NCBI GenBank assembly: GCA_964488255.1
Contig: CAZAUR010000001.1
Coordinates: forward strand, 259,244 to 323,243
Length of the DNA stretch: 64,000 nt
Direction: 5' to 3'
DNA from: an uncultured Spirochaetaceae bacterium
Lineage (GTDB): Bacteria; Myxococcota_A; UBA9160; UBA4427
Shown: positions 4,899 to 55,879 of the stretch, in pieces
Position numbering within the stretch: position 1 is the first letter of the stretch
Layout: each line of letters opens with the position of its first letter
The notes under the pieces: generated by a model
What the model saw: only the letters and a program-made list of their open reading frames with translations
What the model was told of the DNA's origin: nothing
Database searches by the model: none
Translations under genes and position numbers: made by a program

Positions 4899-5857
4899 GC
4901 CGCCTCCCGCCTGCGCGCTGCGCGCAGACGCGCGGAGCGGGCGCGCGGGTTGCGCTCGGTCTCGTCGTCGTTCGGCACGACCGGGCGGCGTGTCAGGATC
5001 TCGAGGGTCGGCACGCGGCCGCAGCGGCATTCCGGAAACGACGGCGGGCAGGAGCAGCCCTTGGCCTCGCTCCGGAAGGTCTGCTTGACGAGGCGATCCT
5101 CGAGGCTGTGATAGGCGATGGCGGCGAGGCGTCCGCCCGGACGCAGCACGCGAATCGCGGCCTGCAGCCCGTCTTCGAGCGCGCCGAGCTCGTCGTTCAC
5201 GGCGATCCGGAGCGCCTGGAAGACCAGCGTCGCCGGGTTGTGCCGGCGGCCGCGGCCGATGCCGAGCTCTCCGATCAGGTCCACGAGATCCGCCGCGGTC
5301 TCGAAGGGCGCTGCCTCGCGCCGCGCGACGATCGCCTTCGCGAGCCTGCGAGAACCCGGGAGCTGGCCGTACTCCGAGAAGATCTTCTCGAGCGCCTGGG
5401 TGTCGAGGCTGGCGAGGAGTGCTGAAGCCGGGGCGCGATCGCCGTCGCTGTCCATCCGCATGTCGAGCGGGCTCTCGTCCGGCGCGTCACCGAACCGGAA
5501 GCCGCGGGTGGGCTCGTCGAGCTGATGCGAGGAGACGCCGAGGTCGAGGACGATGGCGTCGATCCCGTCCGGCGCGAAATCCGCGGCGACGTCGTCGAGG
5601 CGGCGGAACGAGGACTGGACAAGGCGAACGCGTTCGCCGAATCCGGCCTTCTCGAGGCGGTTTCCGGCCTCCCGGAGCGCTTCCGCGTCGAGGTCGAGTC
5701 CGAGCAGGATACCGTCCGGGCCCGTTCGCTCGAGGATGGCGTGCGCATGGCCGCCGCCGCCGAGGGTGCCGTCGAGGACGACGGCGCCAGGCTGTAGATC
5801 GAGCAGTCCGAGGGTTTCGGCGAGAAGGACGGGTTCGTGGTAGGCCGTGGTCACCAC
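4895..5857 (-). CDS. rsmH: 16S rRNA (cytosine1402-N4)-methyltransferase
   Basis: 320-aa ORF beginning YHEPVLLAETL, with DGTLGGGGHA and DLGVSSHQLD motifs. dcw position. Confidence 0.95.
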   Translation of the reverse strand: MVTTAYHEPVLLAETLGLLDLQPGAVVLDGTLGGGGHAHAILERTGPDGILLGLDLDAEALREAGNRLEKAGFGERVRLVQSSFRRLDDVAADFAPDGIDAIVLDLGVSSHQLDEPTRGFRFGDAPDESPLDMRMDSDGDRAPASALLASLDTQALEKIFSEYGQLPGSRRLAKAIVARREAAPFETAADLVDLIGELGIGRGRRHNPATLVFQALRIAVNDELGALEDGLQAAIRVLRPGGRLAAIAYHSLEDRLVKQTFRSEAKGCSCPPSFPECRCGRVPTLEILTRRPVVPNDDETERNPRARSARLRAARRREAA

Positions 5858-6146
5858 TCCGGGCGCCCCTCGTCGATGTGGACCGTCAGGTCTCCTCGGT
5901 TCGCCTCTCCCGCGTCGGGCTCAGGGGCAGGGGAGAGGAGAATGGCTCGCGCCGGAGGTGGGACCCGCACCGTTAGGTGCGGGGGCGAGAGCAGTGTGAG
6001 AGAAGATGTTGGGGCGTCCCGGGACACGTATCTTCGGCACGTACCCCCCAGTAACCGCGCCGGAGACCCTATGTGCCCCGGGAACACCCCAACCTCTCTC
6101 CTGGAGAGCGCTTCCCTGAAGAAGGCTCTCCAGTCCCCCCAAAAAG

Positions 6147-6593
6147 CTACGACCCTGAATTTCCCTGGTGCAGGGTTCGTTTGATGTCTTCCAGGCCCAT
6201 CACCGTCTCGGTCTGGCCTGCTTCATAACGCGAGGGGCTCCAGATCTCGATTCGCTCGAGCACCCCCGCGACGATGACGTTCTTCTCGAGCCCGGCGTGG
6301 TCGCGGAGAAAGGCCGGAACCAGGATTCGGCCCTGGGTATCCACCGGGCAGGGCGTGGAGCCGGTCGCGTAGAAGCGACGCAGGCGCTGGGCGTCGGGAT
6401 CGAGGCTGGACATCTCCATCAGTCGCTGCTCTTCGGCGGCCCAGGTCTCGGCCGGGAAGAGGGCCAGATGATCCTTCTCGTTAACCAACATCGGTGGACT
6501 TTCCCCCGCACCTACCAGCTCGCCTCGGAACACCCGCGGAATGCTGAGTCGCCCCTTGGCGTCGATCGTGTGGTCGTGACGTCCACGAAACAT
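6147..6593 (-). CDS. mraZ: Transcriptional regulator MraZ
   Basis: 148-aa ORF beginning MFRGRHDHTIDAKGRLSIP, with a second SpoVT/AbrB-like half. First gene of the dcw cluster. Confidence 0.95.
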   Translation of the reverse strand: MFRGRHDHTIDAKGRLSIPRVFRGELVGAGESPPMLVNEKDHLALFPAETWAAEEQRLMEMSSLDPDAQRLRRFYATGSTPCPVDTQGRILVPAFLRDHAGLEKNVIVAGVLERIEIWSPSRYEAGQTETVMGLEDIKRTLHQGNSGS

Positions 6594-6751
6594 CGTTCTA
6601 CAAATGCCTCGCTTTTCGTCTTGTCGGTCTCGACGGCCGTTGCGGCTATGCTCTGGCCAGGTTCGATGGATTCATCCGTTCGGGTCGATCCGGAAGGCGT
6701 TCTGCGAGAGGCCTTCCGGCTCCACTCTTTCCCAAGAGGACGTCGTTTGAT

Positions 6752-6800
6752 CCCACCGTGCCCCACTCGACTGACTTTCTATCCCACCTTGTCCCACCCA
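6752..6800 (-). promoter_or_regulatory. Candidate MraZ operator: phased GTGGG/TGGG repeats upstream of mraZ
   Basis: On the plus strand, CCCA(C) occurs at 6752, 6762, 6783, 6793 and 6797 (TGGG on the mraZ strand). Two pairs have exact 10-bp spacing. The repeats lie about 160-200 nt upstream of the mraZ ATG. Confidence 0.4.
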
Positions 6801-7079
6801 CGCAAGGCAAAATCCGCCCGATGCGTGTTTTTTTTCGCGCATCGCACAATTCACCCCAAGCCTTGTACCGCCGAGTCGAAGACGAGGCGAAAGCCGAGGG
6901 CTGGGTGTTGGGGCGTCATCCCACCCGGGTCGGAGGGCTCGCCGGAGCCGGTGGCGGCGCGAATCTGGGCGTAGGGCCGGCGATCGCGTCGGCCGCATAA
7001 CACGCGCGGCGTCTTCGAATCGCACGGGTCGTGCCGGGCGGCTGGGGAGGTGGGAGTCGGGCGCAGGGCTGGGGTCGGC

Positions 7080-7247
7080 CGGCGCGTCCCAGCGAGCCAG
7101 CGCGTCCTATCCGTCCGCCTCGACGAGCATGCGGATGTGATCCATCTGCACCGAGTCGTGCACGACCCGAAAGCTCCCGTGATCGCAGGCGCGCCGAAGT
7201 GGTTCCCCGAATGCCACCGGCCAGCGCTGGCTTCGCACGCCTAACAA
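7080..7247 (-). pseudogene. Decayed fragment of an IS200-like/RAYT-like Y1 transposase gene
   Basis: The tail of spurious ORF 7107-7901 reads RSQRWPVAFGEPLRRACDHGSFRVVHDSVQMDHIRMLVEADG*. This aligns with RNPRWLRAFRETLGRGCERGDFRVVHYSVQRDHIHMIVEAAGK of the intact gene at 26604-27293. Weak similarity continues past the TAG (DALAR vs QALAS). There is no N-terminus and no catalytic Tyr region. Confidence 0.6.
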
Positions 7248-7285
7248 GTAGCGGGCGTCGGTTCGAGGCTTCGAGACCGCGGCGC

Positions 7286-8374
7286 CTACCGCGCTCCGAG
7301 GTTCGGGATCCGTCGCCCGTGCACCTCGAAGACCCCGTCGACGATCGACTTGAGCACGGAGCCGGATTCCAGGTTTCCGCGACCGTCTTCGGTCCCGTAC
7401 GCCAGGCGCTTCTCGTCGGCGAGGAGGGATTCGAGCACGGCGGTGGTGCCCTCGCGGACGCCCGAGAGGGCGTAACCGCCTTCGAGGACGTGGACGATCC
7501 GGCCTTCGCAGAGGGTATCGGCGAGGGAACGGAGGATCGCGGACATCGTGCGATAGCCGTCGAGGCTGATCTCCATCGAGGCGAGGGGATCGTCGCGATG
7601 GGCGTCGAAGCCGCAGGAGACGACGATCAGGTCCGGTGCGAAGCCCATCGCGGCGGGGACGATCAAGCGCTCCACGACGCCGATGTACTCCACGTCGCCG
7701 CAGCCCGGCGGCATAGGGATGTTCAGCGTCGTGCCCAGTCCGCGACCTTCGCCTTCTTCGCCGAAGTCGCCGGTTCCCGGGTAGAACGGGAACTGGTGCG
7801 TGGACGCGTAGAGGACGCTCGGATCGTCCTGGAGAATGTGCTGGGTTCCGTTGCCATGATGCACGTCCCAATCGAAGACGAAGATGCGCGGCGCTCCGCA
7901 CTCTGCCTGGAGGGCACGCACGGCGACCGCCACGTTGTTGAAGAGACAGAAGCCCATGGAGCGCGCGGCTTCGGCGTGGTGGCCCGGGGGTCGGACCGCG
8001 GCGATGCCCCGTGCGACGTCGCCTTCGAGCACCCGTCGGGCGAGATCGATCGTCCCGCCCGCGGCGAGGCGAGCGACGTCGAAGCTCGAGGGCGTGTGAT
8101 AGGTGTCCGCGTCGATCCGGCCCGGCGGCAGCTCGCGCGTGGTCTCGAGCGCCTGGAGCATGCGCGCGTCGTGGGCGCGCAGGATCTCGTCGGGCTCGGC
8201 TTCGCGCGGCGACACGAGCGTGACGTCTTCGCGGAAGGGGTCGAGCGCTTCCGAGAAGGCGATCAACCGCTCGGGACGCTCGGGGTGACCGTCGGGGCCG
8301 CGGTGGCTCTGGTAGCGGGCGTCTTCGACGACCTCGACCGTGGGCGTGGGAGCTTCGGGGGTTGCCTCGGTCAT
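7286..8374 (-). CDS. Histone deacetylase-family (acetoin utilisation/acetylpolyamine amidohydrolase-like) deacetylase
   Basis: 362-aa ORF with RPPGHHAE, DWDVHHGNGTQ and GFDAH motifs. Confidence 0.85.
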   Translation of the reverse strand: MTEATPEAPTPTVEVVEDARYQSHRGPDGHPERPERLIAFSEALDPFREDVTLVSPREAEPDEILRAHDARMLQALETTRELPPGRIDADTYHTPSSFDVARLAAGGTIDLARRVLEGDVARGIAAVRPPGHHAEAARSMGFCLFNNVAVAVRALQAECGAPRIFVFDWDVHHGNGTQHILQDDPSVLYASTHQFPFYPGTGDFGEEGEGRGLGTTLNIPMPPGCGDVEYIGVVERLIVPAAMGFAPDLIVVSCGFDAHRDDPLASMEISLDGYRTMSAILRSLADTLCEGRIVHVLEGGYALSGVREGTTAVLESLLADEKRLAYGTEDGRGNLESGSVLKSIVDGVFEVHGRRIPNLGAR

Positions 8375-48066: not shown

Positions 48067-48564
48067 CTAGCGTCGCTGCTCGCGGAGGCCGCTGGCTTCC
48101 CACTCCTTCGAGAGCTGCTTCAGCTTTCGCGAGAACTCTTCGAAGGGATCGTCGAAGGAGAGGATGATCTCCGTCGTGCGCGGGATGTCGTCGCCGTTGA
48201 GCAGACCGCGGTAGCGATTCAGGTTCGCGAGGATCGCCTCGGCGACCTTCAGGGCGCGCTTCTCCGTCTTGATCAGGGGCGACTGGAGCGTGTAGACGTT
48301 GTTGCGTCCCCAGAGACTCTCGTCGCGGACGATCGCGATCTCGCGGTAGACGCCGTTGATCGGATCGAAGTTGTACTCGACGCGGACCTCCTTGAAGATG
48401 TCCGAGTTGCCGGTGTAGAACCCGCGCTCCTTCTCGACCTTACCGAGTTGGCGGCAGCGGGGGCAATAGAAGGTGTCGCCGTGATTGAGGAGGAAGACGC
48501 CCTTGGCGTAGTCCTCGCAATCCGTGTTCTCGCAATATCCAACGCCGCGCTTCATGCTGGCCAT
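48067..48564 (-). CDS. Hypothetical zinc-ribbon protein (orphan, family not recognised)
   Basis: 165-aa ORF with a non-low-complexity, K/N/Y/F/E-rich sequence (MASMKRGVGYCENTDCEDYAKGVFLLNHGDTFYCPRCRQLG...). It contains Cx5C...CxxC. Locally lower GC than its neighbours, and flanked by non-coding DNA on both sides. Confidence 0.6.
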   Translation of the reverse strand: MASMKRGVGYCENTDCEDYAKGVFLLNHGDTFYCPRCRQLGKVEKERGFYTGNSDIFKEVRVEYNFDPINGVYREIAIVRDESLWGRNNVYTLQSPLIKTEKRALKVAEAILANLNRYRGLLNGDDIPRTTEIILSFDDPFEEFSRKLKQLSKEWEASGLREQRR

Positions 48565-49249
48565 CCTGGTGGATGCCTCCTTCGGTTCGTGCGTCTCTCC
48601 CGGTTCCCCACCAGTGATCCAGGGCGCCGCACGTTCCGTCTGATTCGCTTTCGTAGAAGAGCAAGCCGTGTGCCATGGACGGGATTGGCTGGGGGGCGTT
48701 CCGTCCCGGAGCGAGCTTGCCGATGTTACCCGAATTCCCTGCCGGTCGATTGCCTTCGATCCGCTTCGAATCCGCCTCCGAAGGTGAGGGCTCGTCTCCG
48801 GATCGTGATCAGGACGCTCTCACGCCCGCTTTCGTTCCCCCGAGCGCCGTGCTCGTGAAACCGAACACCGCGCCGCGGGGCTGCTTGCGGGGTCGCCGTG
48901 GGACGCGTTCGGGCCCAAAAGTGGAAGAAGACTTCCGCTGCTCACGCAGTGCGCAATTCCTGTCGCAGTCGCGTCCCGGTCGGAGGGCACCGACGGGGCG
49001 AAGGCGCGGCTTCCGGAGGAGTCCGGGCACGCCGCACGTCGCCAGGGGGTGGCGGGGGCTTCTGCGGTCGCTTGCGTGGCGCTGCAAGCGACGCGAGAGG
49101 GGCGTGGGGAGCGCAGTCTCCTTCGAGTCTAGGGGGCTTCAAACGCGTGCCGGGTGAACCCGATCGCCACAATGTTTCCGGAGACCCGGTCGTTGTCAAC
49201 CGCGATTTGATTTTGGACCGTGTTCTCTTCGTCGCCCTGCCGCGACGCG

Positions 49250-49996
49250 TCAGGTGTCGTCGACCGTGGACGGCCGAGAGCCTCGGACGGGATGCGCGGC
49301 GTCGCTCTCCACGCGGTCCGTTTCGGCGCGCAGGACACCGATTCGCCAGCGCAGGACGAGCAGGAAGACGAACACGAAGAAGAGCGTCAAATTTCCGACG
49401 AGGAAGGGGAGGCCCATCCCCTCACCCAGACCCGAGCTCTCATTGGCGAGATTGTCGGGGTGCATCGCGCCGCCCACGAGATCGATGATCCAGTAGTTGA
49501 GCGGGATCAGCACGACGCCGAGGATTCCGTAGATCGACGCGAAGCGCGCCGCGCGTTCGTCGCCCTCGGTGAAGCTGCGCAGTAGCAGGTAGGCGAGGTA
49601 CACGAACCAGAGCAGGAGCGTGAGCGTCAGCCGCGCATCCCATACCCACCAGTTGCCGGGACCCCAGGCGCCGCGGGCCCAGATCGGTCCGGTGATCAGC
49701 ATCAACGAGCAAAAGAGGGTGCCCACCTCGGCGCCCGCGATCGCGAGCTGGTCGTGCACCTCGCGGCCGCGCCACAGGAAGAGGCCGCCCGCGATCGCCG
49801 TCGCGACGAAGCCGAGATAGGCGCCGTAGGCGAGCGGCGGATGCACGTAGAGGATCTTCTGCATGACGCCCTGGACCGAGTCGAGGGGCGCCTGGATCAC
49901 GGTCCACGCATAGACGGGCAGCAGCACGGCGACGCACCAACCGAGCACGCGGAGCGATACGGCGAGGCGGTCGTCGTCGGCGGCGGGTCGGGTCAT
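49250..49996 (-). CDS. ccmC: Heme exporter protein CcmC
   Basis: 248-aa ORF with the Trp-rich motif WGPGNWWVWDARLT and multiple TM segments. Confidence 0.9.
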   Translation of the reverse strand: MTRPAADDDRLAVSLRVLGWCVAVLLPVYAWTVIQAPLDSVQGVMQKILYVHPPLAYGAYLGFVATAIAGGLFLWRGREVHDQLAIAGAEVGTLFCSLMLITGPIWARGAWGPGNWWVWDARLTLTLLLWFVYLAYLLLRSFTEGDERAARFASIYGILGVVLIPLNYWIIDLVGGAMHPDNLANESSGLGEGMGLPFLVGNLTLFFVFVFLLVLRWRIGVLRAETDRVESDAAHPVRGSRPSTVDDT

Positions 49997-50095: not shown

Positions 50096-50761
50096 CTACT
50101 CGTCGAGCACGTAGTCGAAGAGCAGGAACGAGAGGACGAGGTAGATCCCGCCGATCACGATCAGCGGCTGCACGAGGGAGAGGCCGAGGGGATCGCCGCC
50201 GAGGGTCGCGGTCGTCGCCCGAACCGCTGCGGCGAGGACCGGGACCAGCGTCGGGATCAGCAGCACCGGGAGCAGCACCTCACGGAAGCGACTACGCACG
50301 CTCATCGCGGAGAGCAGGGTGCCGACGCTGCAGATCGCGACGTTCGCGAGGGCGGCGATGGCGGCGCTGCCGGCGAGGCCGACGGACACGTCGACCCGCA
50401 TGAAGAGGGCGAAGACGAGTGCGGTCAGGACCTGCACGAGGGTGATCAGCACCCAGGTGGCCGCCGCCTTGCCGAGGAAGATCCAGCCGCGGGTGCCCGG
50501 GGCGAGGGCCAGGGCGGTCATCGCCTCGTTCTCGAGCTCGGTCGCGAAGGTTCGCCCGAGGCCGATCACGGCGGCGAACACGTAGGTCACCCACAGGACA
50601 CCGGGCGCGAGGCGCGCGATCTCTTCGCGATCCATGCCCGGCCACGCGAACTGGAACACGACGACGACCAGGAACGCGAAGATCGTCATCGCGACGACAC
50701 GGTCGCGCGAACGCCACTCGGTCACCAGGTCCTTCCAGAGCAGCGTGAGCGCGACGTTCAT
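50096..50761 (-). CDS. ccmB: Heme exporter protein CcmB
   Basis: Internal ATG at 50761 (ATGA overlap with the ccmA stop) gives MNVALTLLWKDLVTEWRSRD..., with six TM segments. Confidence 0.85.
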   Translation of the reverse strand: MNVALTLLWKDLVTEWRSRDRVVAMTIFAFLVVVVFQFAWPGMDREEIARLAPGVLWVTYVFAAVIGLGRTFATELENEAMTALALAPGTRGWIFLGKAAATWVLITLVQVLTALVFALFMRVDVSVGLAGSAAIAALANVAICSVGTLLSAMSVRSRFREVLLPVLLIPTLVPVLAAAVRATTATLGGDPLGLSLVQPLIVIGGIYLVLSFLLFDYVLDE

Positions 50762-51507
50762 GCGGCGACCTCGCCACGTGCGAGCCCGACCAGGAGCTGG
50801 CGCAGCGCGTCGACCTCGAAGGTCTCGTCGCCGCGCCTCGGCGCGGCCCGAAGCGCGCCCTGGTGCAGCACCCACGCGCGGTCCGCCAGGGCGACCGCGC
50901 GCCTGGGGTCGTGGGTCACCAGCACGAGCGACCGCGTCGCGGCGGAGTCCCCCGCGCGAAGCGCATCGAGCCGCGCGGCCAGGCGCTCCCCGGACGCTTC
51001 GTCGAGTCCGGTGAAGGGCTCGTCGAGCAGCACGAGCGAGGGCTGGTGCACGATCGCGCGGGTGATCGCGAGGCGCTGCGCCATGCCGCGGGAGAAGGTG
51101 TCCGCGCGCCGGTCGGCGACGTCGAGTAGCGCGAAGTCGTCGAGCAGGGCGTCGAGCGCGTCGCGGCCCGGGTTCTGCCCGTGCAGTCGCGCGGCGAAGG
51201 AGAGGTTCTCGCGTGCGCTCAACTCGCCGTAGAGAAGCGTGGCGTGGCCGACGTATCCGACCCGCGCGCGTAGCGCCTCACGCGCCAGCGGCGCCTCGGC
51301 CCCCTCGCCGAGGGTCGCTTCGAGGCTGCCGCCGCTCGGCCGGGAGAGGCCGGCAAGGATCTTGAGCAGACTGCTCTTGCCCGCGCCATTCGCGCCCAGG
51401 ATCGCGATCGCCTCACCCGGGGCGAGGGCGAAGTCGATTCCGCGGAGCGCGGCGACGCGGCCGTAGCGCTTCTCGACCGCGGCTCCGCGGAGCCGGAGCG
51501 AGCTCAC
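50758..51507 (-). CDS. ccmA: Cytochrome c biogenesis ABC ATPase CcmA
   Basis: GTG at 51507 (GTGA overlap with the upstream stop). Walker A GANGAGKSSLLK, signature FSRGMAQR, Walker B LVLLDEP. Confidence 0.85.
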   Translation of the reverse strand: MSSLRLRGAAVEKRYGRVAALRGIDFALAPGEAIAILGANGAGKSSLLKILAGLSRPSGGSLEATLGEGAEAPLAREALRARVGYVGHATLLYGELSARENLSFAARLHGQNPGRDALDALLDDFALLDVADRRADTFSRGMAQRLAITRAIVHQPSLVLLDEPFTGLDEASGERLAARLDALRAGDSAATRSLVLVTHDPRRAVALADRAWVLHQGALRAAPRRGDETFEVDALRQLLVGLARGEVAA

Positions 51508-53422
51508 CCCTGCGCTCCGCTGGCTTCGCCCGGTTCGAGAGTGCCGCCGCAGTGGGAACAGAAGCGCCACTTCGCGTCGACCCGATCACCGCAGGACGGA
51601 CAGAAGCGACCGGTCGCGACTGCCGCGGGCGTAACGGGCGCGGGATCTCGCGGTGTCGGAACTTCGGGCGCGCTGGTCGACGCGGATCCGGTCGACACGC
51701 CCGCGTGGGTTCGCTCCTCCCGCAGGAGCGAGATCGCCTGTCCGCGCAGCTCGCGCCGCATCGCCTCGTAGTCCGCTTCGTCGAGCTTGCCGGTCTCGAA
51801 GTCGTGCTCCAGGTCCGCGATGTCCGAGTAGACGCCCTCGCGTTCTTCGCGGAGCCGCTCGAGCTCGGTGTCGACTGCCGGTGCGCGATTCCGTCTGCGC
51901 AGCAGCGGGGCGACGAGGAACCACGCGCCGCCGGCGGCAGCGAGCAGCGTGAGCGCGAGGCTCGCCTCCTGGGGCAGGCCGGCGCCGCTGAGGGGCTCGA
52001 GGTGCAGGTCGACGACCTCGTGCATGCCCACGTTGTAGGCCTCGCGGTGGAGGTAGTTCCGGGTGCGGTTGCGGAAGGGGCGTCGGCGGTGGAGCCGCTT
52101 GCTGTCGAGGGCGAGCCCGGTGTCCGCGACCAGGACGTTCAGGGTCTGTACCTCGCGCGGGAAGCGCAGGTCGAGGGTGACGCCGTCGGGTCGGCTCGGC
52201 ATGCGAAGGGCGTAGCCGATCGAATGTTCGCCCGGGCCGATCGGTCCGATCACGTCGAAGCCGCCGTCGTCGGTGGGCGTCAACCCGAACGCTTCGGCGT
52301 CCTGGGACACGCCCTGGAGCGCGGCGCCCGTCGGGACCGACACGTGCATCAGCGGCGCTTCGGGGGTCCCGGTGACCGGCGCGCCCGGCGACACGACGAC
52401 CTGCAGGTCGACGTTCGCTTCGAGTCGCGTGTCGTCGAGGTCGACCCAGACGTCCGTGCGCGGAATCGTGACCGCGGCGGGATCCATGCGGCTCTCGGGC
52501 AGCGTGATCGCGAGCGCGATCCGTTCCCCGGCCCGCAGCCCCGCGCGGGCCCAGCTCGCGAGCGGGCTCGTGTCATCGTCGACGAGGCCGCGCGAGGCGA
52601 CGAGCCCGGTGCCCTCGATCTCCATCCCGCTGGTGCCGGCGACGGCAACGACCCGAGAGGCGTCCGCGCGCAGCTCGACGGGCACGTCGACGGTCCGGAT
52701 CGACCGACCGAGGGGGAGGCTCCACTGATACTCGACCGCCTGCTCGCCCGAGTAGAGCGGGCCGAAGAAGCGGACCACGCCCTCGCTGAGCACCAGCTCG
52801 TCACCGATCGAGCTCGGCCCGGCGTTGAAGTCCTGGGCCGCTGCCGGCAACGGGCGTTCGAAGATCGCAGGGCCCTCGGCGTTCGCGGGGAGCTGGATCA
52901 CGCGCGTGCCTGCACTCGTCAGGCGGAGGATCTCGGCGACCACGATGCGGTCGCCCATCCAATCGACGCGCACGCGTAGCTCGTCGACCGCGACGCCCGC
53001 GACCTCCGTCGTCGGCGTCGAGACGCGAATCGAGACGCCGGCTTCCGTCTCTCCAGCGACGAACGTGACGCGCTCGCCGAAGGGGATCTCCGCGAAGCGC
53101 GCGCCGACCAGGTAGACGATTCCCGGGTCGTTCGAGATGCCGGCGAAGACGTGTCGCCCGGTGGCGTCGGTCACGCCGTTCGCGAGACCGGGCATGCCGT
53201 CGGGGCCGAGCGCGTAGAGCGCGAGCTCGCGACCGCCGAGGTCGGCGTTCGGCTCGGCCGAGACGAGGGTCACGGTCAGCTGTCCCGGTCCGGGCGGAGG
53301 CGGCGGGGCCTGGCCGATGTCCTCGCCGTGTTGCGCGAGCGCGACGACGGGAATGACGAGCAGCGCGGCGATCGCGACGAACGCGCGCGAGGCCGTGCGG
53401 GACCGCCTTCGGGCGGGGAGGT

Positions 53423-53426
<4 letters not shown>
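51504..53426 (-). CDS. Unknown ccm-operon protein: signal peptide, large periplasmic beta-rich region, one TM segment, cytoplasmic CcmI-like helix and zinc ribbon
   Basis: GTG at 53426 (GTGA overlap with the ccmF stop). Signal peptide RAFVAIAALLVIPVVALAQ; TM segment ASLALTLLAAAGGAWFLVAPLL; then GVYSDIADLEHDFETGKLDEADYEAMRRELRGQAISLL and RFCPSCGDRVDAKWRFCSHCG. The upstream 577 aa of the 1217-aa ORF are antisense-frame junk over ccmF. Confidence 0.65.
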
Positions 53427-55417
<1,991 letters not shown>

Positions 55418-55879
55418 CTACAGCTCGATGCTCGACTTCTCGGCGGGCCCGGCCTGCGCCTCGAACTTCGACGGACACTTCGCGAGGACGTTGTCGGCGA
55501 CGAAGACCCGGGCGCCGCGGTTCAGCACGAGCTGGCCTTCGACGACGACCTCGGCGCCGTCCTGGAAGAGGTCCGGCGTCTCGAGGCTCTCGTACACGAC
55601 GGCCAGGGTCTGACCGACGGGTCCGCCGCCATGGGGTGGGTCGTTCTGGACGGAGAAGAGCACGCGCTTGCCCTCGACGTCACGCTCGATCGAGGAGTTC
55701 GCGACATAGCCGTGGACGCGCGCGCTGCGGCCGACCATGTCGCCTGCGTTGGCCTGGAACTGGTCGAGCTCCTGGAAGTACTGGAACGAGAGTCCCGCCT
55801 CCATCTGCGTCGAGCCCCACCAGCCGAGCAGCGCGGCGATGGCCGCGGCGCCGATGGCGATCTGTACACCCTTGGACAT
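55418..55879 (-). CDS. ccmE: Heme chaperone CcmE, variant type (Cys replaces the heme-binding His)
   Basis: Internal ATG at 55879 gives MSKGVQIAIGAAAIAALLGWW, then an OB-fold region. The C-terminal motif is VLAKCPSKFE where canonical CcmE has LAKHDENY. Confidence 0.85.
   Translation of the reverse strand: MSKGVQIAIGAAAIAALLGWWGSTQMEAGLSFQYFQELDQFQANAGDMVGRSARVHGYVANSSIERDVEGKRVLFSVQNDPPHGGGPVGQTLAVVYESLETPDLFQDGAEVVVEGQLVLNRGARVFVADNVLAKCPSKFEAQAGPAEKSSIEL

Follow-up and report, generated by a model that had tools for sequence, protein, structure and literature searches.

CcmI, also known as CycH, corresponds to the C-terminal half of E. coli CcmH, has a paralogue in NrfG and is part of the CcmFHI complex that ligates haem in System I, one of the cytochrome c maturation (Ccm) machineries. 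It is the membrane module of CcmI that joins CcmFH. A variant Ccm machinery with a Cys-type CcmE, System I*, was reportedly described by Allen et al. 2006 and Goddard et al. 2010. The window considered here is a stretch of 64,000 nucleotides (contig CAZAUR010000001.1 of assembly GCA_964488255.1, GTDB lineage Myxococcota_A; UBA9160; UBA4427) which contains a ccm operon with a Cys-type ccmE and, between ccmF and ccmA, a gene for a predicted type I bitopic membrane protein of 640 aa, here called X. X is encoded at window positions 51504..53426 and, like all features of the window given below, lies on the minus strand; it is recognised by its open frame, its homologues, its synteny and an AlphaFold model. 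The best reading of X is that of a CcmI-type accessory subunit with a new architecture. At a probability of roughly 0.6, X is a rearranged CcmI without a tetratricopeptide repeat (TPR) domain, which would handle apocytochrome for the CcmF of a Cys-CcmE (System I*) machinery.

Apocytochrome is bound by CcmI via its TPR domain (PMC3884852). In the System I* of Desulfovibrio CcmI enhances maturation without being essential (Stevens et al. 2011, PMC3601427), and in the published view CcmI merely 'helps', with archaea and sulfate reducers managing on a streamlined set of factors (PMC3601427, PMC9084895). CcmH is retained by roughly one third of the bacteria with System I*, and its absence is no strict criterion (PMC3601427). 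X may bear on how System I* and other Ccm systems that lack CcmI or its TPR domain recognise and hold apocytochromes, especially long multihaem ones. A full-text literature search returned no published description of X and nothing that combines CcmI, a zinc ribbon and cytochrome c maturation, and none of the ten top-ranked papers for Ccm in Myxococcota concerns Myxococcota.

The gene and its place in the ccm operon

The window has a G+C content of about 70% and long spurious frames are therefore abundant, but the frame of X is real nonetheless. It contains no internal stops and starts with a GTG (53426-53424) that agrees with the homologues and is preceded by a Shine-Dalgarno sequence, GGAG, 8 nt upstream (53438-53435). 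This GTG overlaps the TGA of ccmF (53425-53423), and the GTG of ccmA (51507-51505) overlaps the TGA of X (51506-51504), both junctions reading GTGA. X is thus coupled translationally to its two neighbours. The ccmA and ccmB genes are joined by an ATGA overlap, ccmE and ccmF abut (TAG-ATG) and ccmB and ccmC are spaced by about 100 nt. Matches to Pfam and NCBIfam families identify the neighbours on the same strand as the haem lyase gene ccmF (53423..55417), ccmA (50758..51507) and ccmC (49250..49996), with ccmB (50096..50761) recognised by Pfam and ccmE (55418..55879) by Pfam CcmE together with a motif scan. The original prediction, made from the letters of the window, had read the order as ccmE-ccmF-X-ccmA-ccmB-ccmC with 4-nt overlaps around X, and both hold. 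It had also allowed that the GTG start might be wrong and X untranslated; the start is consistent with the homologues.

More than 150 homologues at 40-87% identity were found in a collection of 5.8 billion proteins, and a profile of X searched against 1.8 billion representatives retrieved about 248 clusters (50% identity) at E<1e-30. The few homologues that bear a name are annotated as 'zinc ribbon domain-containing' or 'hypothetical', and as a result inventories of Ccm proteins in Myxococcota miss the X proteins. The genome encodes no paralogue of X elsewhere. X is a real, conserved and unannotated gene and not a chance ORF.

X-like matches are present in 89 of the 301 genomes of a phylum-wide sample. 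Throughout the same genus, family and order X is full-length in all genomes sampled (48/48 for the order), while the match in the sister family extends over the C-terminal half, and elsewhere in the phylum it covers some 110-150 residues that comprise a transmembrane (TM) helix, a hairpin and a zinc ribbon. All 29 loci of the order that were compared have the arrangement ccmF-X-ccmA-ccmB, and a further 80 loci from GTDB species genomes, all of them metagenome-assembled genomes (MAGs), show the order ccmE-F-X-A-B-C wherever the flank exists. These 80 are mostly labelled Myxococcota, Myxococcales or Deltaproteobacteria (e.g. UBA4427). A number of loci (L053, L061, L062, L065, L066, L076 and others) come from GenBank MAGs labelled Spirochaetaceae, Spirochaetales, Phycisphaerales or Desulfobacterales; in all other respects the locus is of the Myxococcota type, and these labels are probably taxonomic errors. 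Every orthologue examined is located between ccmF and ccmA and none lies outside a ccm locus, which settles a check that the original prediction had proposed and removes its concern that orthologues might occur mostly elsewhere.

In more distant Myxococcota all 14 of the retrieved weak X-like matches are encoded directly after ccmF, in one of two forms. The first is a shorter fused protein of 420-556 aa (L036, L038, L042, L048). In the second, two genes are present: gene A encodes a TM helix, a hairpin and usually a zinc ribbon (124-291 aa), and gene B a signal peptide, a beta domain, a TM helix and a hairpin (396-501 aa). An alignment reveals a TM-hairpin motif that is common to X, A and B, L-x-D-L-x-x-D-x-x-x-G-x-[LIV]-x-x-x-D/Y. 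That fused and split forms keep the same place in the operon argues strongly that both modules are part of the ccm machinery, and X itself is a firmly fixed member of the operon.

Domain plan, membrane anchor and fold

X begins with a Sec-type signal peptide (residues 1-31; 53334..53426) that is recognised in the sequence by its basic n-region, its hydrophobic core and an ALA/QH cleavage site, the A-x-A/Q pattern of which is conserved in the alignments of the family. Residues 46-480, about 435 aa, are predicted to be periplasmic and all-beta. The first domain, D1 (residues 46-136; 53019..53291), has the secondary structure of a seven-strand, transthyretin- or CarboxypepD_reg-like beta-sandwich in the model; it shows a weak profile match to 5-hydroxyisourate hydrolase, which is transthyretin-like, and short relatives of X give weak CarboxypepD_reg matches. 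D2 (residues 143-300) and D3 (302-480), together at 51987..53000, are modelled as two similar tandem beta-sandwiches in an arrangement like that of Ost1/ribophorin I. According to the family alignments the last beta-hairpin before the membrane bears the motif RLHRRRP (residues 444-450; 52077..52097), whose His446 is invariant across the full-length X family; its counterpart in the sister family is LHPARP, and the motif is absent from the split B-type proteins. A single TM helix (residues 486-510; 51897..51971), seen in both sequence and model, is followed on the cytoplasmic side by RRRNR and then by a predicted hairpin of two cytoplasmic helices with an acidic stretch (residues 520-578), in which the motif D-L-[DE]-H-D-[FY]-E-T-G-K-L is conserved. 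The linker that comes next (residues 579-600) is disordered in the model and of low complexity in sequence. X ends in a predicted cytoplasmic Cys4 zinc ribbon (residues 608-627; 51546..51605) that matches Pfam PF13240, Zn_Ribbon_1, with 26.0 bits (cut-off 25) through the pattern CxxC-x10-CxxC at 609-626, and the four cysteines, C609, C612, C623 and C626, are invariant in 56 sequences.

Two AlphaFold2 models underlie this plan. The full model, built on a 56-sequence alignment, has a mean pLDDT of 85.8 and exceeds 90 for most of residues 41-430, and a sub-model of residues 140-515 (D2-D3-TM), built on 57 more diverse sequences, reaches 91.9. Low confidence at RLHRRRP in the first of them was not reproduced with the more diverse alignment, and nothing is built on it.

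The membrane anchor is the part of X with a recognisable family likeness. NCBIfam TIGR03142, the N-terminal domain of CcmI, matches residues 492-577 (51696..51953) with E 3.3e-6 and 27.4 bits against a trusted cut-off of 29.3. The match takes in the TM helix and the cytoplasmic hairpin with its motif DLEHDFETGKLDEADYEAMRRELR and corresponds to positions 5-86 of the 118 in the model, that is, to the first TM helix and the cytoplasmic loop of CcmI without its second TM helix. When the genome was searched in six frames X was the sole match, at 30.6 bits and above the cut-off. TIGR03142 is also matched at E<=0.01 by 25 of the 56 members of the X family, in which no other family recurs, and scores of 24-30 bits are reached by relatives within the order. 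X gives the best match genome-wide in 18 of the 24 genomes sampled from the order, this one included; one of the 18 (G108) has a second, weaker match outside X. None of 151 Myxococcota genomes has a match clearly above the cut-off, so the phylum appears to lack a canonical TPR-type CcmI. The similarity is thus a recurrent but borderline and remote one, which may be taken as a lead that fits the genomic context, short of a proof of homology.

The original prediction had described X as a protein with a signal peptide, a beta-rich periplasmic part that includes a carboxypeptidase-regulatory or Ig-like segment, a single TM helix and a cytoplasmic tail with a CxxC...CxxC zinc ribbon at its end, and sequence and model agree with this plan, the Ig-like segment fitting the sandwich of D1 and the weak matches of the relatives. 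The resemblance that it had noted between the tail helix and the membrane-proximal motif of CcmI/CycH is reproduced by TIGR03142, at scores close to the cut-off. It had also proposed a structure prediction for the periplasmic part, which returned an all-beta region whose top fold match is Ost1/ribophorin I (RPN1).

In a Foldseek search with the full model, ranks 1-8 are all occupied by Ost1/RPN1 chains at a probability of 1.00, led by human RPN1 (8b6l_O, E 1.6e-13) and including 6s7o_E and the yeast Ost1 chains 7oci_A and 6ezn_A; the whole-chain alignment with human RPN1 extends over 558 columns, and the next fold follows at 1.8e-6. The D2-D3-TM sub-model retrieves the same eight chains (E 1.1e-12 to 9e-10) in alignments that cover the whole Ost1 chain, with the N-terminal domains of M1 aminopeptidases as runners-up at about 1e-4. 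In both searches Ost1/RPN1 leads the next fold by 5 to 7 orders of magnitude. When the PDB was searched by sequence, neither the X protein nor the X profile had a significant match. On the strength of the models, the likeness between X and Ost1 is one of plan and not of family membership.

The fold match could be read as a sign that X plays no part in cytochrome c maturation, being either an Ost1-like partner of an STT3/PglB-family protein or a passenger gene. The genome does hold an STT3/PglB-family gene on contig 19 (G000:C19:47832-48410; 56.6 bits, in a 795-aa frame). Of 41 genomes from the order only 22 carry a gene of this family, in no case next to X, whereas X is present in 48 of 48 sampled genomes of the order between ccmF and ccmA and stays linked to ccmF in its fused and split forms across the phylum. 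This makes a role outside the Ccm pathway very improbable.

The cytosolic domain of ribophorin I binds the ribosome. X might in the same vein be a coupling or sensing device, whose periplasmic domains report the status of apocytochrome or haem, or whose hairpin and ribbon bind the ribosome, Sec or a regulator and thereby keep export in step with haem attachment. The invariance of the four ribbon cysteines, the retention of the ribbon in most split A proteins and the whole-chain alignment with human RPN1 would all suit such a device. X lacks any DNA-binding or signalling domain, though, the ribbon is missing in two split lineages (L044, L047) and its comparison with ribosomal zinc ribbons is not significant (E 0.09 to 6), and we consider this account decidedly unlikely. 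In a broader proposal X and its split relatives would be bacterial counterparts, possibly true homologues, of Ost1/ribophorin I, and together they would make up a general class of type I subunits with a double beta-sandwich, which present substrate to polytopic membrane enzymes acting on unfolded Sec-exported chains, namely CcmF here and STT3 in eukaryotes. The hairpin and ribbon would then link the haem lyase with Sec or with the ribosome during translocation, at which stage long multihaem cytochromes would receive their haem. As a whole this proposal is speculative and ranks as doubtful.

For X as a CcmI-type subunit the following mechanism is proposed. X would be exported by its Sec signal peptide and become a type I membrane protein with three periplasmic beta-sandwiches, one TM helix, a cytoplasmic hairpin and a cytoplasmic Cys4 zinc ribbon. 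The TM helix and hairpin, as a remote relative of the CcmI membrane module, may dock onto CcmF, with or without the CcmH-like protein described below. The periplasmic beta-sandwiches would take the place of the TPR domain of CcmI and hold the unfolded apocytochrome c, and perhaps also holo-CcmE, beside the active site of CcmF, much as Ost1/ribophorin I is thought to hold nascent chains beside STT3. The contact of X with CcmF and CcmH, the binding of apocytochrome and any role of the zinc ribbon are all inferred.

Cytochrome c maturation in this genome

The genome (6.6 Mb in 72 contigs, 95% complete) encodes single copies of CcmE, CcmF and CcmC. ResB was not found in it, which excludes a System II; the ccm genes of the window hence belong to its only cytochrome c maturation system. 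The genome also contains open frames with 8, 9, 10, 10, 21 and 23 CxxCH motifs, of which those with 21 and 23 are adjacent (G000:C13:11562-15300), others being located on contigs 16 and 32. These very large multihaem cytochromes depend on a sole Ccm system, and the cluster must therefore mature demanding substrates.

No ccmH, ccmI, ccmG or ccmD is found within the ccm cluster, as the original prediction had observed when it suggested that X might be the missing component of the system. Part of that suggestion stands: X is fixed in the operon, has a CcmI-like anchor and is the only CcmI candidate in the genome. CcmH, on the other hand, is not missing. A CcmH-family gene stands alone on contig 28 (G000:C28:17934-18428, equivalent to L003 8935-9429, minus strand), encoding 164 aa with a PF03918 match of 61 bits next to a cobalamin adenosyltransferase gene, and of 41 genomes from the order 40 keep a gene of this kind (30/30 of those of high quality). 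Its motif MSP[FY]CPGR[TS]LxDC replaces LRCxxC, the first cysteine being lost and a new one appearing 8 residues on. The prediction had named canonical ccmH, ccmI or ccmG elsewhere in the genome, together with evidence that X is dispensable, as what would count against it; what is found elsewhere is this variant CcmH-family gene and no other CcmI. Since the CcmH-family gene is retained, X is a candidate CcmI equivalent and not a replacement of CcmH, and a reading of X as a CcmH substitute was rejected on the same grounds.

For CcmG the genome holds no match at the cut-off of TIGR00385 and five generic thioredoxin-like candidates. CcmD was not detected in this genome (window 49100-49330, the stretch that follows ccmC) or in near relatives (CcmC at least 64% identical), whereas in 24 of 70 more distant X-bearing loci (e.g. 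L075, L079, L084, L114) a CcmD mini-ORF of 31-53 aa overlaps the ccmC stop, representatives of which match PF04995 with up to 26.5 bits. A CcmD-like TM segment on contig 5 (L130 5888-6415) was set aside, having no Pfam CcmD support. Relatives with both X and a CcmD mini-ORF likewise led to the rejection of X as a CcmD substitute. X does not replace CcmH, CcmG or CcmD.

The CcmE of the window carries the motif LAKCPSKF, with cysteine for the haem-binding histidine and phenylalanine for tyrosine. All 56 loci in which X is long and fused have CPSKF, and the 11 in which the X-like gene is short or split have CPS[KR]Y or CPTKY; the co-occurrence of CPSKF and long X may represent a single phylogenetic event. 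The Phe-type CcmE is a rare variant, of which four cases were known in a 2011 survey (PMC3601427). Two ways in which X could make up for the lost tyrosine were considered and dropped. An N-terminal AQH-PPPPP arm acting as a tethered haem ligand in its stead is not tenable, with the histidine and polyproline limited to relatives of more than about 50% identity and most of the CPSKF clade lacking both, and a role of His446 as a specific compensation for the Tyr-to-Phe change is not supported, the CPSKY sister family having LHPARP as well.

The same loci bear on an alternative in which X serves the delivery of haem. In this case the TM helix, hairpin and ribbon of X would contact CcmA, CcmB and CcmC, and its periplasmic domains would act on CcmE during loading, release or hand-over to CcmF, so that apocytochrome would not be the substrate. 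The stop codon of X overlaps the start of ccmA, the subclade of the window has no detectable ccmD, and the tyrosine that ligates haem in canonical CcmE is lost in all 56 long-X loci, all of which would be in keeping with it. Distant relatives, however, carry X together with a bona fide ccmD (PF04995, 26.5 bits), the sole family-level similarity of X is to CcmI, which is part of the CcmFH module, and the split pairs follow ccmF or a ccmF-ccmH fusion, with no ccmA detected after the pair in L040, L043, L044 and L047. A role in haem delivery is therefore judged unlikely, and a CcmI-type role beside CcmF is preferred.

About 700 nt downstream of ccmC the window contains an exceptionally conserved ORF of 165 aa (48067-48564), which comes after ccmC on the same strand wherever the flank is long enough, the sister family included. 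Its median amino-acid identity is 97% across loci in which CcmF reaches 64% and X 36%, and an excess of synonymous over non-synonymous codon differences (2689 vs 329) points to vertical descent under extreme purifying selection and not to recent transfer. The ORF has no match among the families of Pfam and NCBIfam. The zinc ribbon at its N-terminus is similar to that of eS31/S27a (E 4e-4), JGI names the ORF 'ribosomal protein S27AE', and its product may be associated with the ribosome or be some other core protein specific to the lineage. The 685-nt gap that separates it from ccmC (48565-49249) has no Rfam match at E<=0.1.

Comparison with known systems

X resembles CcmI in several respects. 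It is encoded with ccmF, directly downstream of it in the 29, 80 and 14 loci described above; its TM helix is followed by a cytoplasmic helical loop that matches TIGR03142 5-86; and it has a large periplasmic domain that is presumed to handle substrate. It differs in having a cleavable signal peptide and an extra C-terminal Cys4 zinc ribbon. Further differences weigh against its assignment as a CcmI-type subunit, together with several other observations. X has no second TM helix, the chain past residue 510 staying cytoplasmic in the model; it has no TPR domain, with no TPR in a Pfam scan and an all-beta fold in both models; and its topology is reversed, in that the periplasmic domain is N-terminal. 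The CcmI score is borderline and the match includes a TM helix, which inflates scores, and an hhalign comparison of the X family profile with E. coli CcmH, of low power given the single-sequence target, gave no match. With regard to the fold, the global TM-scores of X against Ost1/RPN1 are low (0.19-0.32), meaning that the inter-domain geometry differs or is mis-modelled, and Pfam PF04597, Ribophorin_I, has no match on X at E<=0.1 and none in the genome at E<=10. X is moreover the fastest-evolving gene of the cluster, with a median identity across loci of 36% vs 64% for CcmF, and its carriers are all uncultured.

The locus shares with System I* a CcmE with cysteine for the haem-binding histidine, a cluster without ccmH and ccmG and an accessory gene of the CcmI type. 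It departs from System I* in that its CcmE has CPSKF and not CPSKY and that a CcmH-family gene is kept elsewhere in this genome. The accessory protein of the Desulfovibrio System I* is called CcmI and is set beside X by name.

The split A/B pairs of other Myxococcota (e.g. L035 7837-8379 + 8376-9677; L040 7768-8484 + 8471-9694) occupy the same operon position as X and resemble it in having a beta-rich periplasmic module and, in most A proteins, a zinc ribbon. In contrast to X they consist of two chains, both of which carry a TM helix and a hairpin, their periplasmic part is shorter and the CcmE of their loci keeps the tyrosine (CPS[KR]Y or CPTKY). In L040, from another Myxococcota family, the pair stands next to a CcmF of 971 aa (4902-7817) that has a C-terminal CcmH domain (PF03918, 45.9 bits). 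The accessory layer of the haem lyase is modular, with fused and split forms within one phylum.

A protein that keeps the membrane module of CcmI alone and has an Ost1-like beta-sandwich array for the TPR domain would be a concrete and testable candidate for substrate handling. Ost1/ribophorin I (PDB 6s7o_E, 6s7t_E, 8b6l_O, 6ezn_A, 7oci_A) shares with X a type I topology, two similar tandem beta-sandwiches and one TM helix, which in RPN1 is followed, as in X, by a cytosolic helical domain. X adds an N-terminal transthyretin-like domain and the zinc ribbon. The partner of Ost1 is STT3, which, like CcmF, the proposed partner of X, is a polytopic membrane enzyme that modifies unfolded, Sec-exported polypeptides. 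If the likeness were one of common descent or of mechanism, it would connect two unrelated machines for protein modification that both operate where chains leave the Sec channel.

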